Shown: positions 2,202 to 59,463, counted from the first letter of the stretch. The stretch: 64,000 bases of DNA from an uncultured Hormoscilla sp. (GCA_963921275.4 OZ001293.3:1536001-1600000); one strand, 5' to 3'. Numbers and translations are program-made. The notes: generated by a model not told the origin, from the sequence alone.

Positions 2202-4071
2202 GTGATGGCCATCAACACCAGACAGCAAACAGTTATCATCGGTACTAACCTCTATCCTTACTTGGAGTGCAACTATCTCGGGCAGAAATTACGCCTGGAT
2301 CTCACAAAAGATGAGCAGATCTTAGGGCGGGACGCCCAGCAGGCAGACTTGGTAGTGGATAATAGCTGGCGGGTAGTGAGTCGTTGTCAGGCGGTCCTGC
2401 GCCGCTGCGGCTCGGAATATCAGATATACGATGGTAATGGGTAAACAGCCTAGCACAAACGGCTTGTTTCTCGATCGCACTCGTATTACCCCATCCCAAG
2501 GTATCATTCTGAACAATGGCATGGAATTGCGGCCAAGACCCCCAGAACCAGGTGCGCCTCACCTATTTTAACCCCTCTAGCGGACTGATCGCTAGCCCGA
2601 TCGCTCAACATAGCATTTCCCTGAAAAACGGACAATGCGAACTGGGTCGCAACCCCAGCGCTACTTTGCAACTAGATTCTCCGGTAGTTTCCTGGCGTCA
2701 CGCCATGATCTTGATGTCGGTGAGGTGGTGGACAAAACCCTGGAAGAAATTGAAATGAGCGATCGCCAGGACGTGTTAGTCAGTCAACTGAGTGGCGGTC
2801 AGCGCAAACGGGTGAGTATTGGAGTGGAACTGCTGCTGTTTTTCCTGGACGAACCGACTTCTGGTCTGGACCCGGGGTTGGATAAAAAGATGATGCAGTT
2901 GCTGCGCAAGTTGGCCGACCAGGGACGTACCGTTATCCTGGTCACCCATGCTACCGCCAATATCACGCAATGCGATCGCATCGTCTTTTTAGGACGTGGG
3001 GGACGTCTCTGTTACTTCGGACCTCCCCAGGAGGCGAGTAAATTCTTTACCCTGACCTCTGGTGAAGACTTCGCCGACATCTATATCAAACTAGAACAAG
3101 GGGAAGATATTATCCAGCAATGGGCTAGTCAATTTCAGAGTTCGGACTACTACCAAGATTATATCATCAATCATCTGAGTGCGGGCCACCAGCCCCAGTC
3201 GGTGGTAACATCTCCTCAACAGGTTAAACCTTCTTTCTTTTGGCAATTATCTCTGCTGAGTCAACGCTACTTGCGACTCCTCTGGCGCGACCCCGTTAAT
3301 CTGGGATTATCCCTGTTTACCGCCTCTATTGGCATCAGTCTAATTACTCTCGCAATTGATAAAGAACCTTTAGTTCTCCCCGATACACCTGATTCTACCC
3401 TGGCCCCTTTAGCCTTGCGAGTATTATTTGTCTTTACCTGTGCTGCTATTTGGGTAGGACTCTCCAGTTCCTTGCAAGAAATTGTTAAAGAATCAGCAAT
3501 TTACCTGCGCGAACGGTTGGTGAACCTAGGATTATTTGCCTATCTGGGTTCAAAACTGTTAATTCTTTCGGGGTTAGCGCTGTTGCAAACTCTGTTAATC
3601 TGTGCAGTAATTCTAGTTGGATTCAAATCGCCCTCGCCGGAATTGATCCCCTGGTTTCTGGGGTTGGGTATCACTACCTTCGGGACATTATTAACTAGCA
3701 TGAGTCTGGGTTTGACGATCTCGGCCCTGGCCAAAAATGGCACTCAGGCCAATAGCACTTTACCCCTGCTGTTAATCCCTCAGATTATTTTCTCCGGGGT
3801 TTTGTTTAAGATGGAAGGTCTTGCTAGTAAGATCTCTTGGTTGATGCTGAGTCGTTGGTCGATCGGGGCCTATGGGGCCTTAGTAGATGTGAATGGAATG
3901 GTACCCAAGGGATTTGATGGCGAACCTCTGCCCTACCTGCCCTTCCAGGGAAGCCATGTTTATGCTGCCACTTGGGGTAATCTGGGCTTAAATTGGGAAA
4001 TGTTGTGCCTGCATACCTTAGTTTACCTGGGAGTGACCTGGTTGGTGCAGAAGCGGAAAGATATTTTTTGA
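2202..4071 (+). pseudogene. FHA-domain / ABC transporter ATPase-permease fusion, frameshifted and internally deleted
   Basis: FHA-like pieces (LGRD...VSRCQA; LGRNP...VSWRHA) in separate ORFs; LSGGQRKRVSIG and FLDEPTSGLD plus permease helices, but no Walker A. Confidence 0.8.
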
Positions 4072-4258
4072 GTGCGAATGGTGAATTGCGAATGGTGATG
4101 CTATTTGTTGGGCGATCGGGTATAGTGGGAGATGAGACGATCGCGACCTACCGATCGCCGGTCTGCGCTTCATGTAGCAGAAAATACATGGCTCCATAAG
4201 TAAGGAAGAGAGAGAAGATGGCTCTGGAAAATTTTCTGGCAAAAATGTAGAGTTTGAC

Positions 4259-6146
4259 GTGCGATTCGTTCTAGCCTAAGGTGGTCAAACACGGAACGCT
4301 AGTCTAGGAAACTAGAAACTCTAGTACTCATGGGGGTTAGATTCCCGTGCGATGAGTTCCAGCCTAACGTAGTCATATACGGAACGCTGGCCTAGGAAAC
4401 TAGGAACTCTGGTAATCATGGGGGTTTAATTCCCCCTCCCCAGGTACAGGGGTAACCGCGTGAGGTGCTGCGAAGTAACATCATCGTGGTGCCAAGCGAG
4501 GACTCAAATGTAGGATAACTGGCAGCCCAAGCCGGTGACTCTGCTAGGAAAGATGTCCATGGCTAGAACAAGCGAACCTATGTAAACCTCGTTAAACCCA
4601 ACCAGCGAAATAAGGCTTAATGCGCTGGAACAAAAGTTAATGCAGTTAGTGTTAATTAGGGAATTGGCTAACATTGTACCCAAATAACTGCCGGGGAAAA
4701 GTAGGGGCCTAAAGGCATCGTGAAATGATACCAGGGAACGAAGTAACCTCAGCGAGAGGAACGAAGTAACCCCCGTGGTGCTGTCCTCATTTGGACAAGT
4801 CAGATGTGCGTCCGCGTAGCGTGCGCGCAGCGCATAGCGCATGCCCATGAGGGGAGAGATGGCCCGAGAAGCTAATGCCTAGGCGGTGTCTGGAGCATGC
4901 CTTGGTGTCTGGAGCACACCGAGTCCTTCAGGACAAGAGTGTGCGGAAGACGCCAAAGTCCTTCAGGACAAGAGCATGCGGAAGACGCCGGTAATGCCTA
5001 TGGATACGCAGACGCGGGTCGGTGATACTAGTAAACTATTGGTACAAGTAGCTCTAAAATGTCATAAGCCCATTTACAGCGTTAGCGAAAGCGAGTTGAG
5101 GATTGAGGAATATTTAACTGGTAAAACGGAGTGTTAAATGGTGATACTAAAGGTTATCCGGCAGATCCACTCACCAACCAGGAAAGGGGCGGACGTGCAA
5201 GTAGTAAGGGACAATGGGAGTAATCCCTAGTAATCCTACCCGTGAAAGGGGCCTAGTACCCAGTAGCCGTGTGCGGTGAAAGTCGCATGCACGGTTCCGA
5301 AAGGGAGGGTTGTCCCGCGAGGGACAGCTCGACCCCGACTTCTCCCCAGGCGCGGGGGTAACACCGGTTGGAGGTGCTGCGGAGTAACATCGCCGTGGTG
5401 CTAAGCGAGGACTTAAATGTAGGATAGCTGATAGCCTAAATCGGCGACGCCGCGCTTGTTAGATGTCCAAGGTCAGAATAAGCGAATTCATGTAAACCTC
5501 GTTACTACGAACCAGCTCTAAGGCTTAATGCGCTGGCCCAAAAGGGTGAAGTAGTTAGTATTGGTTATGTCAACTGACCAATATCGTGCTCAAAGAACTA
5601 CCGGGGTAGAGTGAAGACCTAAAGACAGCATGAAATGATACTAGGGAACGAAGTAACCTCTCATGAGCTGTCCTCATATGGACAAGTTAGATGTAAAGCG
5701 GAAGCTATGAGGGGAGAGATGGCCCAAGAAGCAAAAGCCTGGGGTAATTCCTATGGATATGCTGACGTGGGTCGGTGATAGATAGAATCTTTGGGTGAAA
5801 GTAGCCTTAATGTTTTAGATCAGGAGAAATCCTAGATAATTAATGTTGGACTAAAGACCTGACCGGGTAAAACTTGGAGAACCTAGTAAATTAGGTAAAT
5901 GTTAGTAAAGAGCGGTTAATATGGGTTGGTACTGTTATCCCCCGCGAACCTTCCGGAGTTAGGCATATATGTAGTCTGAGACTAACCATAAGGGGTGAAA
6001 TTGCATGAAGAAAGGGACAAAGGGAGTAATCCTGAGTAATTCTACCTAGGACAAGGGCTATCTACCCAGTAGCCGTGTGCGGTGAAAGTCGCATGCACGG
6101 TTCCGAAAGGGAGGGTTGGGAGGCGACTCCTAGCTCGACCCCGACT
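4259..6146 (+). mobile_element. ORF-less group II intron (outer member of twintron; 894 nt without the inner intron)
   Basis: Starts GTGCG; D5 AGCCGTGTGCGGTGAAAGTCGCATGCACGGTT near 6071; D6 ends ACCCCGACT; EBS1 GTCAA (5569-5573) pairs with exon TTGAC. Confidence 0.93.
4347..5340 (+). mobile_element. ORF-less group II intron (inner member of twintron; 994 nt)
   Basis: Second GTGCG at 4347; own D5/D6 at about 5265-5340; EBS1 GGGAAT (4659-4664) complements upstream ATTCCC; removal restores ATTCCC|TCTCCCCAGG as in the 48-kb intron. Confidence 0.93.
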
Positions 6147-6557
6147 CCGGATATTGTGGTAAAAGATGGAGACGATCGTCCCATGATGTTTGTCGCTGTC
6201 GTAGCCTCGCAGGTATATAGATCTGAGAAATTGAAAGTTCATTACCTAGAGAATTATCAACAAGTACCTTTTCTGATGTTTGTCAATCTCACACAAGTGA
6301 GAATATATCAATCGGGAAATTATCATCCAGTCATGATATTAAATCCTGGAGAAATTTTTCCAGTTTACGACCCTGACTATCAAAACCATGAGGTTGTTTT
6401 TCAGGATTATTTAGTTGGATTAATGGATGCTTGGTTAAGTGATTTATCTTATCATTGGAAAAGCGAGCATCCTCCTTTTGAAACGCAAGTTAATGAAATC
6501 GGTTTGATTTCTCTGCTAGAAAATGGTTTTCTTGAGAGAATATTGGAGTGGGATTAA

Positions 6558-7160
6558 ATGTCGATATTTTTGTATATTGAAACAAATGGGATCGTGTCTT
6601 TGGCTCAAAAACGAAATCAAGCAATTGAGTCATTGCTGGAAAACTTACCTAATGATGTTCAGTTAATCTTACCCAGCATTTGCTACATGGAAGCGCTATT
6701 TGCTTTTCAACAAGATAAAAAACGGAGAGATATCTTTAAGCAATCTTTGGTTATTGAGATTAATGAAGCAAGACGAAGCAATTTGAACATTTCGCAATTG
6801 TTGATGAATGACTTAGAACAAAGTCAAGTGAAATATAATTTCCTCTCACAACAGTTAAATGATGAATTCATTGAGGCTTTGAGAATTTTGCAATCTCGTC
6901 TGACTTTGATCCATCCTCAACCGGATACGTTAATCAGAACTTTAGTCGCTCCAAATTTGAATAAATCGACAGAAAAGAGAGATGATTTTATTTTGCGGTG
7001 TATTTTAAGACTACGCTCAAAATTATTCGCACCTTAGGAAAACCTTTTTTAGTGAAAATACGAAACAGTTTGGACAGCAACCTGTTCGAGAGGCTTGTCG
7101 AGAAGTTGGCATTACTTATTTTGGGAATATAGAAAATTTGCAAGGTTGGTTGCGATCGTG
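6558..7160 (+). pseudogene. PIN-domain protein, frameshifted near the C-terminus (end approximate)
   Basis: YIETN, ICYMEAL and DDFIL motifs; extra A near 7009 relative to the paralog at 7766. Confidence 0.65.
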
Positions 7161-11074: not shown

Positions 11075-11383
11075 TTACTTAATTTTGCGGTAAATAGCAC
11101 AGAGGCGACTGGGTTTGAAGATTTTGGCTTTGAACATGAAGTTGGGCGGGACGTTAACGATCGCATGTTCTTGGGAGTCATGATACTTTTCAAACTCCGG
11201 GGCCATGCCTTTGGGTGTCCCGGCGCTGTAGGGTACGGGTTGAAACAGGAACTCCGTAAACTCTACGGGAACTCCATTGAGTTGTTGACTCACTTGGTTT
11301 AAGAAAGCTTCACTTTGGAGTAAGCTAAAGAGAGTGGCTTTAGCCTCCGGGTCCAGGGTAAAGCTGAAGAGCAAAATTTTCAA
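11075..11383 (-). CDS. Conserved hypothetical protein (start uncertain)
   Basis: 102-aa ORF co-oriented with and 7 nt from the GIY-YIG gene. Confidence 0.55.
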   Translation of the reverse strand: MKILLFSFTLDPEAKATLFSLLQSEAFLNQVSQQLNGVPVEFTEFLFQPVPYSAGTPKGMAPEFEKYHDSQEHAIVNVPPNFMFKAKIFKPSRLCAIYRKIK

Positions 11384-13806
11384 TGATTCTCAGAGACATT
11401 TACGGTATATGGGCGGCTGTAAGTACAGGTAGACAGGCGGATAAGCAATACCTCGCTGGGTCGATTGCTCAATCTTACCACAAGTGGTGTTGTCCAGAAA
11501 CCGGTAACTTCTGCGAAACCGGGTTTCTGATGATGAGGACGCGCACCAGTCGGCTCAAAGTAGGGGGAGGGGTGTCTGTCGTATTTGAAAAGACTGGCGC
11601 TGGCAAGAAGCAAGCCTATGCCCTCTGCACGGAAGCACCATCGGACGGCAGTCTCGCAAGCTGGCAGTGGTATCCTGCCAGTACAGAGTCCCAATCTACG
11701 GGTTTTTACCATGCTATCTATCCCCGCAGCTGGTATGTTTATGAAAATGTGTTGAGTGCGGCTCTGACTTGCGAGCAGTTTTCCCCGATAATACCGGGAA
11801 ATTACCAGGAAACCAGTTACCCAATTGCCATCTTTGAATGGACGGCCCACAACCCCACGGATACGCCCATTACTCTCAGTATTATGCTCACCTGGGAAAA
11901 TACGGTGGGTTGGTTTACCAATCAGCTGAAGTCGCCAGAGGTGACTGTAAGGGATGATGGCAGCCCAGTATATGATTATCAGCCCCGCTGGGGGGAAAGT
12001 ACGGATAATTACAATCGCTGGATCGAGAATAACTTTCGCGTCGGCTGTCTGATGAGTCGCTTGTCTACGACAAATATCCCCGTGGAAGGGGAAGGTCAAT
12101 GGGCGATCGCGACGGTGAGCAATCCAGCGGTAGAGGTATTCTATCATAGTCGCTGGAAGCCAGGGGGGACGGGAGCGCAAATCTGGGAACCCTTTGCCAC
12201 AACTGGGGAGTTGAGTGACTCGGAAGATGAAAGTCCGGCAGCTGCGGGGGAACGAATAGCTTGCGCGATCGCGGTGCGGTTTACGATTAGACCGGGACGG
12301 ACTCGGAAAATACCTTTTATTTTAGCCTGGGACTTCCCGGTGACGGAGTTTGGGGTGAAGACTCAGGACTTGGCCCGATCGGGAGAGATGCCTTCGACGC
12401 AAATTGGGACGCAGATCGGTTATTATCGTCGCTACACGGACTTCTTCGGGCGGAACGGCAAAAATGCCTGGTCCATGGTTCGCACGGCCCTGAAGCACTC
12501 GGACAGTTGGAAAGAACAGATCCAAGCATGGCAGAAACCGGTGCTAGAAAACTGCGATCTACCGAACTGGTTTAAAATGGCCTTGTTTAACGAACTGTAC
12601 CTGTTGACGGGGGGCGGAACTCTCTGGACTTCGGCGTCAGAAGATGACCCGGTAGGTCAGTTTGCAGTCTGGGAATCGGTAGATTATCGTTGGTATGAAA
12701 GCCTGGACGTGCGACTGTACGGTGCCTTTCCCTTGGTATACCTGTGGCCGAAACTGGAAAAAGCAGTGTTGCTGGCCTATGCCCGGGCCATTCCCACCTT
12801 CGATCGCAGGACTCGGGTCATTGGTTATAATCAAGTAAAAGCCGCGCGCAAAGTCATGGATGCGACTCCTCATGACTTAGGTGCGCCCAACGAACATCCC
12901 TGGGAGCAAACCAATTATACCAGTTATCAAGATTGCAATCAATGGAAAGATTTACCCTGTGATTTTGTCTTGCAAGTCTATCGAGAGTTTGTGCTGACAG
13001 GTAGCACGGATATAGAGTTTTTGCAAGAATGCTGGCCCGCTATTGTCGGAACTCTGAATTATTTGAAGACTTTTGATAAGGACGGGGATGGCATTCCGGA
13101 AAACTCAGGGGCACCAGACCAAACCTTTGATGACTGGCAACTGCAAGGTGTGAGTGCTTATTGTGGAGGGTTGTGGTTGGCGGCCCTGTCCGCAGCAGTG
13201 GCGATCGGGGAAATGGTAGGTGATGCTGCTACCATAGCTGAATATCAAACATGGCTAGAACAGGGGAAAGAAATCTATCAAGAGAAACTCTGGAATGGCG
13301 AATTTTACCAACTGGATAGTGAAAGCGGTTCGGATGTGGTCATGGCAGACCAGTTATGCGGTCAATTTTACGCCCAACTGCTGGGATTACCAGATATCGT
13401 ACTCCGATCGCGTGCCCAATCAGCTCTGAAAAAGATATACGAAGCATGTTTCGTGAAATTCAATCAGCAGCACTCCGAGAAACTGGGAGTAGCAAATGGC
13501 GTGCGATTGCGCTGCGCGCACGCTACGCGAACGGACGGCACTGCGTCAAACCCGGATGCAACTCATCCATTAGAAGTATGGACGGGAATAAACTTTGGAC
13601 TAGGGGCATTTATGCTACAAATGGGAATGAAAGAGGAAGCAATGACAATTGCCGAAGCAGTAGTAAGACAAATATACCAGAAGGGGTTACAATTTAGAAC
13701 GCCAGAAGCGATAACTGCGGCAGGGACATTTCGTGCGAGTCATTACTTGCGGGCAATGGCAATATGGGGGATGTACGTCGTGGGGCAGGCGTCTCGCCTG
13801 CCCTAG
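11383..13806 (+). CDS. GH116 family beta-glucosidase / glucosylceramidase; first ~65 aa atypical, possibly truncated
   Basis: YESLDVRLYG, DQTFDDW, DQLCGQ and FRTPEA motifs. Confidence 0.85.
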   Translation: MILRDIYGIWAAVSTGRQADKQYLAGSIAQSYHKWCCPETGNFCETGFLMMRTRTSRLKVGGGVSVVFEKTGAGKKQAYALCTEAPSDGSLASWQWYPASTESQSTGFYHAIYPRSWYVYENVLSAALTCEQFSPIIPGNYQETSYPIAIFEWTAHNPTDTPITLSIMLTWENTVGWFTNQLKSPEVTVRDDGSPVYDYQPRWGESTDNYNRWIENNFRVGCLMSRLSTTNIPVEGEGQWAIATVSNPAVEVFYHSRWKPGGTGAQIWEPFATTGELSDSEDESPAAAGERIACAIAVRFTIRPGRTRKIPFILAWDFPVTEFGVKTQDLARSGEMPSTQIGTQIGYYRRYTDFFGRNGKNAWSMVRTALKHSDSWKEQIQAWQKPVLENCDLPNWFKMALFNELYLLTGGGTLWTSASEDDPVGQFAVWESVDYRWYESLDVRLYGAFPLVYLWPKLEKAVLLAYARAIPTFDRRTRVIGYNQVKAARKVMDATPHDLGAPNEHPWEQTNYTSYQDCNQWKDLPCDFVLQVYREFVLTGSTDIEFLQECWPAIVGTLNYLKTFDKDGDGIPENSGAPDQTFDDWQLQGVSAYCGGLWLAALSAAVAIGEMVGDAATIAEYQTWLEQGKEIYQEKLWNGEFYQLDSESGSDVVMADQLCGQFYAQLLGLPDIVLRSRAQSALKKIYEACFVKFNQQHSEKLGVANGVRLRCAHATRTDGTASNPDATHPLEVWTGINFGLGAFMLQMGMKEEAMTIAEAVVRQIYQKGLQFRTPEAITAAGTFRASHYLRAMAIWGMYVVGQASRLP

Positions 13807-19489: not shown

Positions 19490-20432
19490 GTGCGAATCGT
19501 TTTGGCGTAAGTCTGAAATATGGCGATCGCCGGGCTGGTTAATACCAGCAACTCTGGTCATCATGGGGGTTCAATTCCCCTTCCCCCAGGTACGGGAGTG
19601 ACCGCGTGAGGTGCTGCGGAGTAACATTACCGTGGTGCCTCCCGAGGACAAATGTAGGATAAGGTCTCAGCCCAGAGACCGACGCCGCATGGCTGCGCCA
19701 CGCTGCGCGATCGGAAAGAGGCTCATGGTTAGAGCAAGCGAATCCCTGTAAGCATCGTCATCTTAAACAAGCGAAAAGAGGCTGACACGCTTGGTGCAAA
19801 ATGCGCACGCAGTCCGCGTATCAGTGGTTGCACGTCACTGATATCGTACCCGAAATGACTGCCGGTGTATAGGGGAGACCTAAAAGCCTCGTGAAATGAT
19901 ACCAGGGAACGTTCCGGACAAGAGCGGTGCTGTCCAGATGGACAAGTCAGATGTGCGTCCGCGTAGCGTGCGCGCAGCGCCTAGCGCATGCCCGCGTGGG
20001 GAGGGAGGTCCTAAGAAGCTAATGCCCGGGGTAATGCCTGTGGATATGCAGACGTAGGACGGATATGGTAAAAAGCTCTAGGAGATAGTAGCCCTCTAAA
20101 CGTGCTTAACCAGTGGCAACACTAGGTAGTAATGATGGACTGAAATCCTAACCGGGTAAAAAATTTAGAGGCCCCATACGGGCACCTGTTAGTAAAGAAC
20201 GGTCATAGTGGTTTTCTAGTTCTCCCCCGTAAACCTTCCGGAGTTAGGTACTCAACTAGTTCATGACTGACCATAAAGGGGCTATATTTCATAGGGCAAG
20301 GGACAACGGGAGTAATCCCTAGTAATCCTACCCGTGACAAGGGTTTACCAACCAGTAGCCGTGTGCGGTGAAAGTCGCTCTTCAGGTTCCGAATGGGAGG
20401 ATTGTCCCGCGAGGGACAGCTCGACCCCGACC
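19490..20432 (+). mobile_element. ORF-less group II intron (943 nt), D5 partly degenerate
   Basis: GTGCG start; D5 AGCCGTGTGCGGTGAAAGTCGCTCTTCAGGTT; ends ACCCCGACC; EBS1 TGCACG versus exon CGGGCA (5/6). Confidence 0.9.
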
Positions 20433-48378: not shown

Positions 48379-49243
<865 letters not shown>

Positions 49244-51619: not shown

Positions 51620-53795
51620 GTTGGTGTCTTTAGTTTTTCGCCACCTTTGAGCGGTTGTGTAAGGCATGATCTCGTTGGACGACAAGGAAGAATAACGTCA
51701 GATAGCTGTGCTCATTCGGGAAAGCTCCTATTTCATCAGACTTCCTGGGAAACTTTCCAAGCGTTCGAGTAAGTTAGAGGTTCTCATCCTACAATGTAAC
51801 TCAGGCGCCAATTGGTAGAAAGTCAAGGTCAACTCAAGAGCTCTCTGGAACCTTTGCACTGCCTTATATTCCAGAACTTCCCACTTCAGGAAAAACGCTG
51901 CCAAGCGCTGTTGTGCTTCCTGTGAGCGAGGGCGCAGCGTAAAGAGCATAAGCATCATTTTGAAGAGGATAACGACGCTGTTGTTTGGCTTGGGAGTGAG
52001 TTAGCTGTTGTCCCATCTCATCATGTTCGGGGAGTTGTTGATAGCTCAGATCGTCTTGGAGCCGTCCCACAAGGTGGGTGATGCATCGCTGTTGCTTGGC
52101 CTTGGGCAGATGTTTGGTCATGGCAGCAGGCAAACCTAAAGTCCCATCACTCACAACTACTTCAACAATTTCTGCTTGCAGACCCCATGCCATTAAGTTT
52201 TATATGAAGTTTTCCCAGGCCAGGATGTCAAGACAGTTGGGCAATTTCGTAATGTATAAGTTGGTAGCTGCCATCTGGCCAGACAGCCATCGCCGCCAAA
52301 ATTACACGCTCTTGAGCTTGCCCCATCTGGCGGAGATGTCCTGCAGGGTCTACTTTGGATGGGGTCGAGCCGGGAATCGCTTCCCGACCCTCCCTTGAGG
52401 AACCGGACTTGCGATTTTCACCGCATCCGGCTACTGGGTACTAGGCCCTTTTCATAGGTAGACTTAATAGGAATTACTTCCGTTAGCCCTTGCCGCCTGT
52501 CTTTTCTTCCCTTTCCTGGTTTAGCGAGTGGTTGTTCTGATAACCGTTAGTATCACCATTTTCAAGTCAGTTTTACCAGTTATCCATACCTTATCCTCCA
52601 CTTGCGTTTCGGATTAGTTCCGTGGCTTTTTAGGATTACTCATTCCAGCAGCTTCCTAGTATCACCGACCCACGTCAGCGCTGGCTACCCAGCATCATCT
52701 ACATTACTGTAGATGTTATCCCAGGAATTACCCCGGGCATTCGCTTCTTGGGCCATCCCTCCCCCCGTGGCTTGCGCTTAACATCTAACTTGTCCTGATG
52801 GACAGCACACGAGAGGTTACTTCGTTCCCTAACAACATTTCGCGATACCTTTAGGTCCACACTATACCCCGGGAGCTATTTGAGTACTATATTAGCCAGA
52901 GTCTAAAACTAATACTAGCTACCATTTCCTTTTTAGGCCAGCGCATATAGCCTTATTTCGCTGGTTCCTTATAACGAGGCTTGCACATGTTTGCCTGCTC
53001 TAACCTTGGATATCTTTCCTAGCGGCGTCACCGGCTTAGGCTGCCAGTTATCCTACATTTGAGTCCTCGCTTAGCACCACGATGATGTCGCTTCGTAGCA
53101 CCGAGGACCGGTGTCACCCCCGTACCTGGGGGGAGGGGAATTTAACCCCCATGCGGTCAGAGTTCCCGGCTAATGAAACCGGGCTAGCGTTCCGTGTTTG
53201 ACCACGTTAGGCTAGAACGAATCGCACAAACTCTTCAAGGGTATATTGGATGTCCACCCAGACCCCATCTACAATCAAGATGGGGGGCGTCTTCTCAATC
53301 ACCGATTGACGATGTTTATCCATTTGCTGTTGAGCTTGTAAAGTAATAGGATTGATGGCACTCACAGATAGGACACTGCCCAGAAGAGGATAAAGTGCCT
53401 CTTGCAAGTCCCTGAAGGATAAACCCATCACATACAGACATAACCCCAAGTGAGCGAGATTCTACCTAGTAACCACAGCTTATGTGCGAGCATCACAAAT
53501 TTATTAAATTGACGCCGCAACTTTTTTCAATCGAGGACATTTAGGCATTCTGAGAACAACATTTTCACTCCTAGGGCGAGAAACCGTGATTCTTTCGTAG
53601 AAAGTTGCACCGAAGCGTTAAATTGATATACTGCTGTGGGAGAGCCCTCACTGCAGGCTATCGGGCCAAATCGCCAGAACCATTGAACCATAAGGGTTGA
53701 GCACCAGAATAGCCATTTTTCGATGTGTAATTTAAATGCGCGACAGCTTACTCCCATTAACAAAGGTAAGGTGGCGAAGAATTCCAGACACCAAT
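51620..53795 (-). mobile_element. IS256-like element (~1.3 kb without its intron), degraded
   Basis: 8-bp duplication GATTATTC (51612-51619, 53796-53803); imperfect IRs TTGGTGTCT...TTCGCCACCTT; LIVDG, VVSDG and QRCITH motifs. Confidence 0.85.
52357..53227 (-). mobile_element. ORF-less group II intron (871 nt) inside the IS256-like transposase gene
   Basis: GTGCG start; D5 AGCCGGATGCGGTGAAAATCGCAAGTCCGGTT; ends ACCCCATCC; EBS1 AGACTC pairs GAGTTT; splicing gives YTLEEF|KVDPAGH in frame. Confidence 0.92.
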
Positions 53796-55947: not shown

Positions 55948-56835
55948 TTATTGAGAGTATTGCTGGACTTCTTCAATGGTCAAGCTCAGGGTTTGGGCGA
56001 CCTGCTCGGAGCTTAAGCCAAGAGCTAATAATTTGGGAATTGCTGCTCTTTGAGCCTGTTCAGCCCGAAATGCCCGCTCCTGTTGTTGCTCCGCTCGCTC
56101 CTGTTGTTGCTCCGCACGCTCTCGCTCACGGTCCGCACGCTCTCGTTCGCGTTCCGCCCGCTCTTCTCCCAGTAGTAATAGATTTCCCCGCTCGTCCCAC
56201 CACCGCATCCACGGCTGATTTTGGTTTTGATAAAAACCCCGCCAGACTCCTAGTTCTACTCCCAAGGGCGGTATGGGATAATGTCCCCGTTCATTGGGTC
56301 TCATCAGCTGGTAAGATCCCCCCTGCAACTCATAGAATTCTAAAGCACCGCTATTGACAAAATAGATGCCATAATAGGGAATCTTCATGACTTGCTCGTA
56401 AACCCAGAATTTTCCCGCCTTTATTAGATTACCTTCAGCATCGCGAGATATAGGTGTATTGTTACGTTCGGGAGAACCATTACCACTGGCAAACTCTAAG
56501 ACAATCTGCGGTATGGTCGGTTCCTTCCATAACACGTAGGAACGGCGAATCTGGGAGTCAATCATGGGGGGCACCCCTGGTACATAGAACCAGTCCGGTG
56601 CTACTGCTCCTGCTTCTGGCGGGTCTGTTCGAGTCCAGTAGATACCGCAGTCTTGCCCGATCGCATATTGTCCGTCCGGGTGCAGTTGTCGTAAAACTGG
56701 TCCTAGAGAATCCGTCAGGATCAGGCTTTGGGGATGTTCTTGAAAGTTCTTCACAAAAGTACCATCCGACTCTGGTAGCTGGGTATGATCCGGTAAAATC
56801 GGAGTCTTTACTGTTTTTGCTGCTGTGGTGACCAT
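55948..56835 (-). CDS. Uma2 family endonuclease, array copy 2
   Basis: Tandem paralog. Confidence 0.88.
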   Translation of the reverse strand: MVTTAAKTVKTPILPDHTQLPESDGTFVKNFQEHPQSLILTDSLGPVLRQLHPDGQYAIGQDCGIYWTRTDPPEAGAVAPDWFYVPGVPPMIDSQIRRSYVLWKEPTIPQIVLEFASGNGSPERNNTPISRDAEGNLIKAGKFWVYEQVMKIPYYGIYFVNSGALEFYELQGGSYQLMRPNERGHYPIPPLGVELGVWRGFYQNQNQPWMRWWDERGNLLLLGEERAERERERADRERERAEQQQERAEQQQERAFRAEQAQRAAIPKLLALGLSSEQVAQTLSLTIEEVQQYSQ

Positions 56836-56865
56836 AGGATTTTACACTTATTTAGGTGATGCTGT

Positions 56866-57690
56866 TTATTGAGAGTATTGCTGGACTTCTTCAATGGTCA
56901 AGCTCAGGGTTTGGGCTACCTGTTCGGCGGTTAAGCCAAGAGCTAATAATCTGGGAACTGCTGCTCTTTGAGCCTGTTCAGCCCTTTCAGCACGCTCTCG
57001 TTCGCGTTCGGCTCGTTCTTCTCCCAGTAGTAATAGATTTCCCTGGGAGTCCCACCACCGCATCCACGGCTGATTTTGGTTTTGATACAAACCCCGCCAT
57101 ACTCCTAGTTCTACTCCCAAGGGCGGTATGGGATAATGTCCCCGTTCATTAGGTCTGTGAAGCTGGTAAGACCCGGACTGCAACTCATAGAATTCTAAAG
57201 CACCGCTATTGACAAAATAGATGCCATAATAGGGAATCTTGATGACTTGCTCGTAAACCCAGAATTTTCCCGCCTTAATTAGATTACCTTCAGCATCGCG
57301 AGATATAGCGGTATTGTTACGTTCAGCGGCACCATTACCACTGGCAAACTCTAAGACAATCTGCGGTATGGTCGGTTCCTTCCATAACACGTAGGAACGG
57401 CGAATCTGGGAGTCAATCAAGGGGGGCACCCCTGGTACATAGAACCAGTCCGGTGCTACTGCTCCTGCTTCTGGCGGGTCTGTTCGAGTCCAGTAGATAC
57501 CGCAGTCTTGCCCGATCGCATATTGTCCGTCGGGGTGAAGTTGTCGTAATACTGGTCCAATTGAATCTGTGAGAATCAGGCTTTGGGGATGTTCTTGAAA
57601 ATTCTTCACAAATGTGCCATCCGACTCTGGTAGCTGGGTGTGGTCTGGTAAAATCGGAGTCTTTACTATTTTTTCTGCTGTGGTGACCAT
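56866..57690 (-). CDS. Uma2 family endonuclease, array copy 3
   Basis: Tandem paralog. Confidence 0.88.
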   Translation of the reverse strand: MVTTAEKIVKTPILPDHTQLPESDGTFVKNFQEHPQSLILTDSIGPVLRQLHPDGQYAIGQDCGIYWTRTDPPEAGAVAPDWFYVPGVPPLIDSQIRRSYVLWKEPTIPQIVLEFASGNGAAERNNTAISRDAEGNLIKAGKFWVYEQVIKIPYYGIYFVNSGALEFYELQSGSYQLHRPNERGHYPIPPLGVELGVWRGLYQNQNQPWMRWWDSQGNLLLLGEERAERERERAERAEQAQRAAVPRLLALGLTAEQVAQTLSLTIEEVQQYSQ

Positions 57691-57720
57691 AGGATTTTAC
57701 ACTTATTTAGGTGATGCTGT

Positions 57721-58608
57721 TTATTGAGAGTATTGCTGGACTTCTTCAATGGTCAAGCTCAGGGTTTGGGCGACCTGCTCGGAGCTTAAGCCAAGAGCTA
57801 ATAATTTGGGAATTGCTGCTCTTTGAGCCTGTTCAGCCCGAAATGCCCGCTCCTGTTGTTGCTCCGCTCGCTCCTGTTGTTGCTCCGCACGCTCTCGCTC
57901 ACGGTCCGCACGCTCTCGTTCGCGTTCCGCCCGCTCTTCTCCCAGTAGTAATAGATTTCCCCGCTCGTCCCACCACCGCATCCACGGCTGATTTTGGTTT
58001 TGATAAAAACCCCGCCAGACTCCTAGTTCTACTCCCAAGGGCGGTATGGGATAATGTCCCCGTTCATTGGGTCTCATCAGCTGGTAAGATCCCCCCTGCA
58101 ACTCATAGAATTCTAAAGCACCGCTATTGACAAAATAGATGCCATAATAGGGAATCTTCATGACTTGCTCGTAAACCCAGAATTTTCCCGCCTTTATTAG
58201 ATTACCTTCAGCATCGCGAGATATAGGTGTATTGTTACGTTCGGGAGAACCATTACCACTGGCAAACTCTAAGACAATCTGCGGTATGGTCGGTTCCTTC
58301 CATAACACGTAGGAACGGCGAATCTGGGAGTCAATCATGGGGGGCACCCCTGGTACATAGAACCAGTCCGGTGCTACTGCTCCTGCTTCTGGCGGGTCTG
58401 TTCGAGTCCAGTAGATACCGCAGTCTTGCCCGATCGCATATTGTCCGTCCGGGTGCAGTTGTCGTAAAACTGGTCCTAGAGAATCCGTCAGGATCAGGCT
58501 TTGGGGATGTTCTTGAAAGTTCTTCACAAAAGTACCATCCGACTCTGGTAGCTGGGTATGATCCGGTAAAATCGGAGTCTTTACTGTTTTTGCTGCTGTG
58601 GTGACCAT
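57721..58608 (-). CDS. Uma2 family endonuclease, array copy 4
   Basis: Protein identical to copy 2; offset 1773 bp. Confidence 0.85.
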   Translation of the reverse strand: MVTTAAKTVKTPILPDHTQLPESDGTFVKNFQEHPQSLILTDSLGPVLRQLHPDGQYAIGQDCGIYWTRTDPPEAGAVAPDWFYVPGVPPMIDSQIRRSYVLWKEPTIPQIVLEFASGNGSPERNNTPISRDAEGNLIKAGKFWVYEQVMKIPYYGIYFVNSGALEFYELQGGSYQLMRPNERGHYPIPPLGVELGVWRGFYQNQNQPWMRWWDERGNLLLLGEERAERERERADRERERAEQQQERAEQQQERAFRAEQAQRAAIPKLLALGLSSEQVAQTLSLTIEEVQQYSQ

Positions 58609-58638
58609 AGGATTTTACACTTATTTAGGTGATGCTGT

Positions 58639-59463
58639 TTATTGAGAGTATTGCTGGACTTCTTCAATGGTCAAGCTCAGGGTTTGGGCTACCTGTTCGG
58701 CGGTTAAGCCAAGAGCTAATAATCTGGGAACTGCTGCTCTTTGAGCCTGTTCAGCCCTTTCAGCACGCTCTCGTTCGCGTTCGGCTCGTTCTTCTCCCAG
58801 TAGTAATAGATTTCCCTGGGAGTCCCACCACCGCATCCACGGCTGATTTTGGTTTTGATACAAACCCCGCCATACTCCTAGTTCTACTCCCAAGGGCGGT
58901 ATGGGATAATGTCCCCGTTCATTAGGTCTGTGAAGCTGGTAAGACCCGGACTGCAACTCATAGAATTCTAAAGCACCGCTATTGACAAAATAGATGCCAT
59001 AATAGGGAATCTTGATGACTTGCTCGTAAACCCAGAATTTTCCCGCCTTAATTAGATTACCTTCAGCATCGCGAGATATAGCGGTATTGTTACGTTCAGC
59101 GGCACCATTACCACTGGCAAACTCTAAGACAATCTGCGGTATGGTCGGTTCCTTCCATAACACGTAGGAACGGCGAATCTGGGAGTCAATCAAGGGGGGC
59201 ACCCCTGGTACATAGAACCAGTCCGGTGCTACTGCTCCTGCTTCTGGCGGGTCTGTTCGAGTCCAGTAGATACCGCAGTCTTGCCCGATCGCATATTGTC
59301 CATCCGGGTGCAGTTGTCGTAAAACTGGTCCTAGAGAATCCGTCAGGATCAGGCTTTGGGGATGTTCTTGAAAGTTCTTCACAAAAGTACCATCCGATTC
59401 TGGTAGCAGGGTGTGATCTGGTAAAATCGGAGTCTTTACTATTTTTTCTGCTGTGGTGACCAT
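58639..59463 (-). CDS. Uma2 family endonuclease, array copy 5
   Basis: Differs from copy 3 by 2 aa. Confidence 0.85.
   Translation of the reverse strand: MVTTAEKIVKTPILPDHTLLPESDGTFVKNFQEHPQSLILTDSLGPVLRQLHPDGQYAIGQDCGIYWTRTDPPEAGAVAPDWFYVPGVPPLIDSQIRRSYVLWKEPTIPQIVLEFASGNGAAERNNTAISRDAEGNLIKAGKFWVYEQVIKIPYYGIYFVNSGALEFYELQSGSYQLHRPNERGHYPIPPLGVELGVWRGLYQNQNQPWMRWWDSQGNLLLLGEERAERERERAERAEQAQRAAVPRLLALGLTAEQVAQTLSLTIEEVQQYSQ

Follow-up and report, generated by a model that had tools for sequence, protein, structure and literature searches.

Domain IV in ORF-less group II introns of a Hormoscilla genome is a covarying RNA arm that may dock a trans-acting maturase

Group II introns without an open reading frame (ORF) raise the question of what fills domain IV once the reverse transcriptase (RT) gene is gone. 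The question is posed by positions 4999-5263 of a 64,000-nt stretch of DNA from an uncultured Hormoscilla sp. (GCA_963921275.4, OZ001293.3:1536001-1600000; this whole stretch is termed the window, and positions are counted from its first letter), a segment lying between domains III and V (D3 and D5) of such an intron. The segment is domain IV (D4) of the inner intron of a nested pair and is a non-coding RNA with a conserved architecture. It belongs to a small group II intron family with five copies in this 64-kb cyanobacterial window, 864-993 nt in length: an inner and an outer intron forming a twintron, and three further copies near 19, 48 and 52 kb. The helices of D4 are maintained by compensatory substitutions, marking the domain as a selected, structured RNA, and the analysis as a whole leans towards D4 being an arm that closes the domain and probably docks an intron-encoded protein (IEP) acting in trans.

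Delimited from the GCWGACG motif to the CCAG preceding D5, D4 of the inner intron spans 5008-5263 on the plus strand and has a type A central module. D4 of the outer intron, at 5761-6069 (plus strand), has a type B module. The length from GCWGACG to CCAG is 256 nt in the inner, 309 nt in the outer, 308 nt in the 19-kb, 233 nt in the 48-kb and 246 nt in the 52-kb copy. An earlier reading made from the DNA alone (the sequence-only reading) had given about 260-320 nt, three ordered motifs kept in all copies and two subtypes; the measured range is 233-309 nt, all three motifs are present in five of five D4s, and the subtypes are confirmed as type A (inner, 48-kb and 52-kb copies) and type B (outer and 19-kb copies). 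GCWGACGYRGG has five matches, each at the start of a D4, against 0.10 expected, and each of the five matches to AC(T/CG)GGTAAAA lies within D4. AGGGMYAA is not rare as an 8-mer by itself, with 10 matches in the window against 9.3 expected. The central module, one of two alternatives (type A of about 90 nt, type B of about 150 nt), sits between the two strands of helix P3. The only matches of the D4 profiles in the window are the five intron D4s, and the modules were rejected as free-standing repeats on these grounds. Comparison with Rfam returned no family for D4, either in 4200-6200 at E ≤ 10 or in the whole window at E ≤ 1.

The secondary structure was derived from 18 distinct D4s of 171-342 nt, five from the window and 13 from loci in Hormoscilla metagenome-assembled genomes (MAGs), aligned with MAFFT and not fitted to structure. 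RNAalifold run on this alignment gives a common core of 30 pairs in six helices. Of 537 core cells 94.8% are paired, compared with a mean of 76.4% in 500 shuffles, none of which reaches as high, and with 33.8-54.5% when the partners are slid by 1-3 columns. Both sides have changed in 23 of the 30 core pairs; the mean for the shuffles is 14.2, with 0 of 500 as high, and the slid controls give 6-12. A model of subtype B built from nine copies contains 58 pairs in 13 helices, with 93.6% of cells paired and 32 pairs changed on both sides, and its slid controls give 27.7-51.1% and 3-12 pairs, respectively. The proposal that this region is a selected RNA module is supported by the six-helix core and by the 13-helix model.

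The elements of the inner D4 follow one another along the plus strand from a basal stem, P1, whose 5' strand (5021-5032) pairs with 5252-5261 and in which 8 of 10 pairs have changed on both sides with 98.9% of cells paired. The 5' strand of P2 (5035-5040) pairs with 5200-5205, five of its six pairs having changed on both sides, and the 5' strand of P3 (5052-5055), preceded by an unpaired AAGUAG, pairs with 5186-5189. A hypervariable stretch after P3 (5058-5100; pairwise identity 0.08-0.43) includes an ATG at 5059-5061. The type A central module (5113-5175) carries the islands ACTGGTAAAA (5117-5126) and GGTGATACTAAAGGTTATCC (5140-5159), with an identity of 0.78-0.88 among the six type A copies; its helices are nearly invariant among these copies and so give no covariation information. 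H4 (GGGA/TCCT) occupies 5208-5237, with 5208-5211 paired to 5234-5237 and three of four pairs changed on both sides, and encloses the hairpin H5 (5217-5226, GGGA-GUAA-UCCC) with its GNRA-type loop. H5 is the tetraloop hairpin for which compensatory changes had been described, and across the 18 copies 3 of 3 pairs have changed on both sides. The last hairpin, H6 (5239-5251, CCC-GUGAAAG-GGG, loop consensus RUGACAA), is also found just before D5 in ORF-containing relatives. P1 and H6 both occur in nine such relatives with compensatory differences, for example CAATGTG/CACATTG compared with CAGTGTG/CACACTG in P1, and TCCT/AGGA, TCCC/GGGA or GGTA/TACC stems around the RTGACAA loop in H6. The place of the ORF is filled by P2, P3, H4/H5 and the central modules. 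A further pairing in the sequence-only reading, GATAAC..GGTTATC in one subtype corresponding to TGACCG..CGGTTA in the other, does not hold up: 72.2% of its cells pair in subtype A, a value reached by 107 of 500 shuffles, with the pairing lost in two of six copies, and only 59.3% pair in subtype B, where the same 5' bases pair instead with CC..GGAGTT.AGG (helix 7, 97.5% of cells paired).

Islands within D4 reach an identity of 0.78-0.88, the level of D5-D6 (0.83), while the surrounding helices vary. Type A has AACTGGTAAAAC (0.78) and GGTGATACTAAAGGTTA (0.81-0.88) as such islands, type B has CCTAACCGGGTAAAA, TGTTAGTAAAGAG and CGAACCTTCCGGAGTT (0.77-0.78), and the junction GCWGACG..CGG has an identity of 0.86-0.90. 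Several unpaired bases are invariant in 18 of 18 copies, namely the A, U and A of AAGUAG and the AG before H4.

Coding remnants were sought in the five regions from the end of D3 to D5, where six-frame translation yields 51 stop-free segments of at least 20 codons; none matches RT or maturase families at E ≤ 10 (Pfam), and four have unrelated weak Pfam matches with E 0.13-0.18. Forward stretches without a stop reach 84 codons in these regions of the inner copy and no more than 42 in the other four, and a small conserved ORF in D4 was rejected as a candidate, the frames being broken differently in each copy. When six related intron proteins are compared with the 18 distinct ORF-less introns (tblastn), the best E value is 0.49 (22 bits) and the matches are scattered over both strands and all domains. 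Both comparisons agree with the earlier claim that no RT-like peptide is present, and neither detects an RT remnant in the region.

At the nucleotide level, nhmmer profiles of D4 find nothing below E 1 in the ORF interiors of nine ORF-containing introns. Only the first part of D4 aligns, to positions 736-824 of the related intron L033 (E 0.017) and 607-668 of L042 (E 0.077). Local alignments to the D4 leader of L042 plus the first 210 nt of its ORF stay within the first ~45-63 nt of D4. The alignments to the 5' leader of L042 outscore every one of 200 shuffles in 4 of 18 copies, and those to its last 260 nt before D5 do so in 0 of 18. Over its first ~45-63 nt D4 is homologous to the leader that reaches the start codon in the ORF-containing L042. 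The AAGTAGCTCTAAAATGTCATAAGCC of the inner copy aligns to AAGTAGC...ATGTCTAAAGCC in L042, a stretch containing the start codon of the IEP, at a level reached by 50 of 200 shuffles. An ATG stands at the column of this start codon in 6 of 18 D4 copies, a count not significant alone; it may be a vestigial start codon, which is only a hint. The description of D4 as standing "instead of" a decayed RT ORF is mostly supported: no remnant is detected at protein or nucleotide level, although the leader is homologous to that of L042 and the ATG in 6 of 18 copies may be vestigial. N- and C-terminal ORF remnants flanking a DIVb deletion, as seen in the TeI3 introns discussed below, were not found, only the D4 leader of L042 being alignable, and the closest ORF-containing relative possibly lies outside the sample.

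Relatives of the family were located by scanning genome contigs with a D5 pattern, giving at least 49 loci, numbered with L; the window itself is not among the matches listed. Among these matches, Hormoscilla MAGs (family Gomontiellaceae) contribute many ORF-less relatives with lengths of 754-970 nt, the closest being L037, 91.4% identical to the 52-kb copy. The D5 pattern is common to introns of 2.5-2.7 kb in Coleofasciculus, Allocoleopsis, Nostoc, Microcoleus and Phormidium, six of which, among the matches listed, contain uninterrupted ORFs of 580-646 codons; the two proteins scanned, from L002 and L042, have RVT_N, RVT_1, GIIM and HNH domains. In Hormoscilla MAGs there are at least two sets of three identical ORF-less copies whose members stand at different sites and have similar 5' flanks: L012, L014 and L041, which follow GATAAA or GATAAG, and L019, L021m and L047. 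Such identical copies at different sites imply that retromobility was recent and that an RT therefore acted in trans. The five window copies are not identical and have a mean pairwise identity of 0.73 in D1-D3. IEP-like genes occur in the same Hormoscilla MAG at L029 (151-1782) and L041 (3062-1974, minus strand), and at L041:1974-4800 (minus strand) the intron encoding the latter IEP carries an ORF-less intron at its D3/D4 junction. The 2.5-kb D4 insert of L027 (3437-5924) was rejected as an IEP gene, as it is an ISL3 transposase. Other insertions are an intron placed inside another in opposite orientation (L021:3352-5149) and an IS630-type (DDE_3) gene in domain I (L025:3863-4858).

Docking of a trans-acting maturase is the standard idea in publications on such introns and fits these data. 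A D4 that closes compactly would hold D3 and D5 in place, and the same arm could be a handle for an RT/maturase encoded by another intron of the genome; binding of the IEP to D4 would permit splicing and retromobility of small hitch-hiker introns, as in TeI3. Several observations weigh against this reading. D4 is the least conserved domain, with a mean pairwise identity of 0.58 compared with 0.71 for D1-D3 and 0.83 for D5-D6 (0.61, 0.73 and 0.80, respectively, among the five window copies). The consensus structures were derived from the same alignments as were used for the pair counts, and the copies are related, so that the contrast with shuffled and slid controls is inflated. The folding energy of single sequences is no better than that of shuffles (inner D4, z 0.02; outer D4, z -0.36). 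The 64-kb window has no RT gene, the best tblastn match (E 0.15) lying outside the introns, and both IEP-like genes of the Hormoscilla MAG look damaged, that of L029 being read in three frames and that of L041 sharing 57% identity with the protein of L042 over residues 31-392, after which it stops. Finally, the central module is absent from L020 (171 nt) and L048:472-653 (182 nt), in which the core is present; the module is therefore not needed for a copy to persist.

The last of these points belongs equally to a serious rival, held to be unlikely yet of real weight, in which D4 is purely architectural: after loss of the ORF the leftover loop would be selected only as an arm that is compact, closed and resistant to nucleases and leaves folding of the ribozyme undisturbed, with no specific protein binding in D4, and a helper, if any, would bind D1 or the D4 leader elements common to ORF-containing introns. 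Covariation as such shows helix maintenance only, which suits this explanation, as do the rapid evolution of D4, the fastest-evolving domain, the two copies without a central module and the interruption of the module by an insertion sequence in L027. It accounts less well for the invariant unpaired bases of AAGUAG and before H4, and for the islands GGUAAAA, GGUGAUACUAAAGGUU and CGAACCUUCCGGAGUU, which are conserved beyond what helix maintenance needs. Moreover, D4a is the known high-affinity maturase site in every ribonucleoprotein (RNP) studied, including the solved RNPs and EcI5 (PMC10190682, PMC8643678). Neutral debris of a deleted RT ORF, with the similarity of copies reflecting recent common ancestry only, would explain why 6 of 18 copies have an ATG, and several others ACG or AAG, at the column aligned with L042, as well as the hypervariable stretch directly following this possible vestigial start. 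This explanation is scarcely credible: it is contradicted by the 23 of 30 double-changed pairs and 94.8% of cells paired in D4s that are only 58% identical, and neither the six IEPs (best E 0.49), the ORF interiors of nine ORF-containing introns nor the ORF region of L042 beyond the D4 leader (first 210 nt, last 260 nt) shows similarity, the last being not above shuffles.

An RNA substitute for the maturase, in which D4 helices and GNRA loops would dock onto the ribozyme core for protein-free splicing, had also been put forward in the sequence-only reading and gained no support, as identical ORF-less copies at different sites imply an RT in trans; it is regarded as very improbable. GNRA-type loops, which weakly suggest such a role, do cap H5 in most copies (GUAA, GUGA, GAAA, GCAA), a hairpin of module B is likewise GNRA-capped (GAAA/GCAA) with covarying stems, and a protein-independent bacterial ORF-less intron, C.te.I1, is known (PMC4424553). 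Against these stand the ACAA loop of H5 in L018, which is not of GNRA type, the lack of an identified receptor, the dispensability of the module in two copies, the existence of related IEP genes in the related genomes and the need for an RT to place identical copies at new sites.

The distribution of the central modules adds a further aspect. A maximum-likelihood tree built from D1-D3 (18 rows, 17 of them different) requires four changes for type A and five for type B, and well-supported branches force at least two and at least three, respectively. The module types are no more clustered on this tree than shuffled labels (86 and 109 of 500). The inner copy is itself a mosaic: its centre is of type A, and its D5-D6 is nearest to those of the outer and 19-kb copies, which are of type B (0.89 compared with 0.75-0.78). 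The scatter of module types over the tree and the mosaic inner copy indicate that the central module moves between lineages or is repeatedly converted. A bolder and rather improbable extension is that the two modules would be interchangeable cassettes for recruitment, acquired once the ORF had been lost; they would move by recombination or template switching, and would match an intron to its driver IEP or, through their GNRA hairpins, partly replace the protein in folding. If true, such cassettes would solve helper dependence by modular RNA, in a way that has not been described among the group II introns of bacteria.

DIVa of Ll.LtrB is reportedly a high-affinity IEP-binding subdomain, and the proposed docking arm has counterparts in other systems. 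DIVa/D4a of EcI5 and of the E.r. IIC RNP resembles the window D4 in being a structured D4 arm beside the start codon (here the former one) and a proposed anchor for the RT/maturase; in these systems the site lies in an ORF-containing D4 with translation signals and binding is shown experimentally, whereas binding to the window D4 is only suggested (PMC8643678, PMC10190682). Among the closest likenesses are the TeI3 introns known from Thermosynechococcus elongatus (PMC2882425; Mohr et al. 2010), which are cyanobacterial, of chloroplast-like/IIB type, shorter than 1 kb, without an ORF, multicopy and found in twintrons, the nested arrangement at L041 being of the kind described there. These T. 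elongatus introns keep DIVa and structured DIV subdomains whose changes covary, with covarying loops described as "pertinent to IEP recognition"; driver IEPs of related introns splice and mobilise them in trans, a feature shown experimentally there and presumed for the Hormoscilla family. They differ in having clear N- and C-terminal ORF remnants around one common 1.5-kb deletion, no remnant being detectable in the window family. As far as can be judged from the description of TeI3, a further difference is the Hormoscilla-family D4 of 171-342 nt with two central modules that do not follow the D1-D3 tree.

Trichodesmium erythraeum, also a filamentous cyanobacterium, has many ORF-less introns dependent on maturases encoded in trans, a twintron whose inner intron lies in domain I of its host intron, and D4s with large parts outside the ORF (215 and 317 nt); the members of its twintron carry IEP ORFs, and the Hormoscilla family is ORF-less throughout (PMC4649490). 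Bacterial ORF-less introns are said to co-reside nearly always with related IEP-encoding introns (PMC4424553). The organellar ORF-less introns of the same account share the absence of an IEP and the splicing-only or helper-dependent state, with trans maturases and host factors; they are vertically inherited and often degenerate (PMC4424553), unlike the present family, whose identical copies at new sites in related genomes are a sign that mobility is ongoing.

Among the papers searched, none mentions Hormoscilla together with group II introns, and those consulted on ORF-less introns of cyanobacteria do not describe this family; it and its modular D4 appear to be undescribed; the kind of element and the proposed role are already known, and current models are unchanged by the finding. 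The family is abundant, forms twintrons and has recently moved in Hormoscilla MAGs. Its D4 offers a map, supported by covariation, of the parts that a helper-dependent intron retains once its gene is lost, and this map is a target for asking how a trans-acting RT/maturase recognises foreign introns, a step thought to lead towards the common splicing machinery.

The window copies are group II introns of chloroplast-like/IIB type that lack an ORF. GTGCG begins all five copies, in line with the GUGYG 5' terminus of group II introns, and the 5'-end pattern GTGCG....GTTC.AGCCTAA has five matches in the window against 0.48 expected. An nhmmer profile of the five copies matches D1-D3 of the RT-encoding introns L002, L003, L008, L023, L033, L038 and L042 (E 1e-11 to 1e-19). 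The D5-D6 family RF00029 (gathering cut-off 40 bits) is passed by four of the five copies with 44.4-48 bits, and the Rfam models for D1-D4 remain below threshold in the window introns (RF01999, 16 bits compared with 36). Motifs of the GCGATCGC type visible in the window are in keeping with its cyanobacterial character.

In the twintron (4259-6145) one ORF-less intron lies in domain I of another ORF-less intron from this family. The outer intron's 5' piece, the start of domain I, occupies 4259-4346 (plus strand), begins with GTGCG, corresponds to nhmmer model positions 1-90 and resumes at 5340; the remainder, by nhmmer, is 5340-6145 (plus strand), the outer intron measuring 894 nt once the inner one is removed. 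The inner intron, 993 nt at 4347-5339 (plus strand) within that domain I, matches the full nhmmer model with 860 bits. D5-D6 of the inner intron is at 5262-5339 (plus strand; RF00029, 47.9 bits) and that of the outer at 6068-6145 (plus strand; 48 bits). The two 5' ends of the twintron appear as an 88-nt "tandem repeat," and a 35-nt unit in tandem (1.9 copies, 93% match, 4922-4989) is found just 5' of D4 in the inner intron only. The twintron is flanked by an ABC-transporter ORF (2635-4071) and by a small ORF followed by a PIN-domain ORF (6558-7037), in apparently non-coding surroundings.

The 19-kb copy (19490-20431, plus strand; type B D4 at 20048-20355) lies in a TPS-domain (haemagglutinin-like) reading frame, which is out of phase by one base across the intron with the boundaries used. 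It falls below the RF00029 gathering score because the 3' strand of its D5 is replaced (20363-20395, ..GTCGCTCTTCAGGTTC), breaking the lower helix. The same D5 variant is present in an otherwise divergent Hormoscilla MAG copy, L043a (L043:462-1386, minus strand), and is therefore not random decay. The 48-kb copy occupies 48380-49243 on the minus strand, with a type A D4 at 48456-48688, and the 52-kb copy 52359-53227 on the minus strand, with a type A D4 at 52434-52679; both are detected by RF00029. Directly downstream of the 52-kb copy is a fragment of a Mutator-family transposase (51864-52193, minus strand; 109 amino acids, Transposase_mut, E 2e-8).

A GC-rich 26-nt element occurs in the domain III region of two introns (4808-4833 and 19955-19980) and once outside any intron, at 13509-13534 (minus strand) in a GH116-like ORF (11383-13806), giving three matches against 0 expected in the window. 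Elsewhere, at 55948-59463, a minus-strand ORF pair (295 and 274 amino acids) occurs twice with plus-strand shadows, suggesting a tandem duplication of ~1.8 kb.

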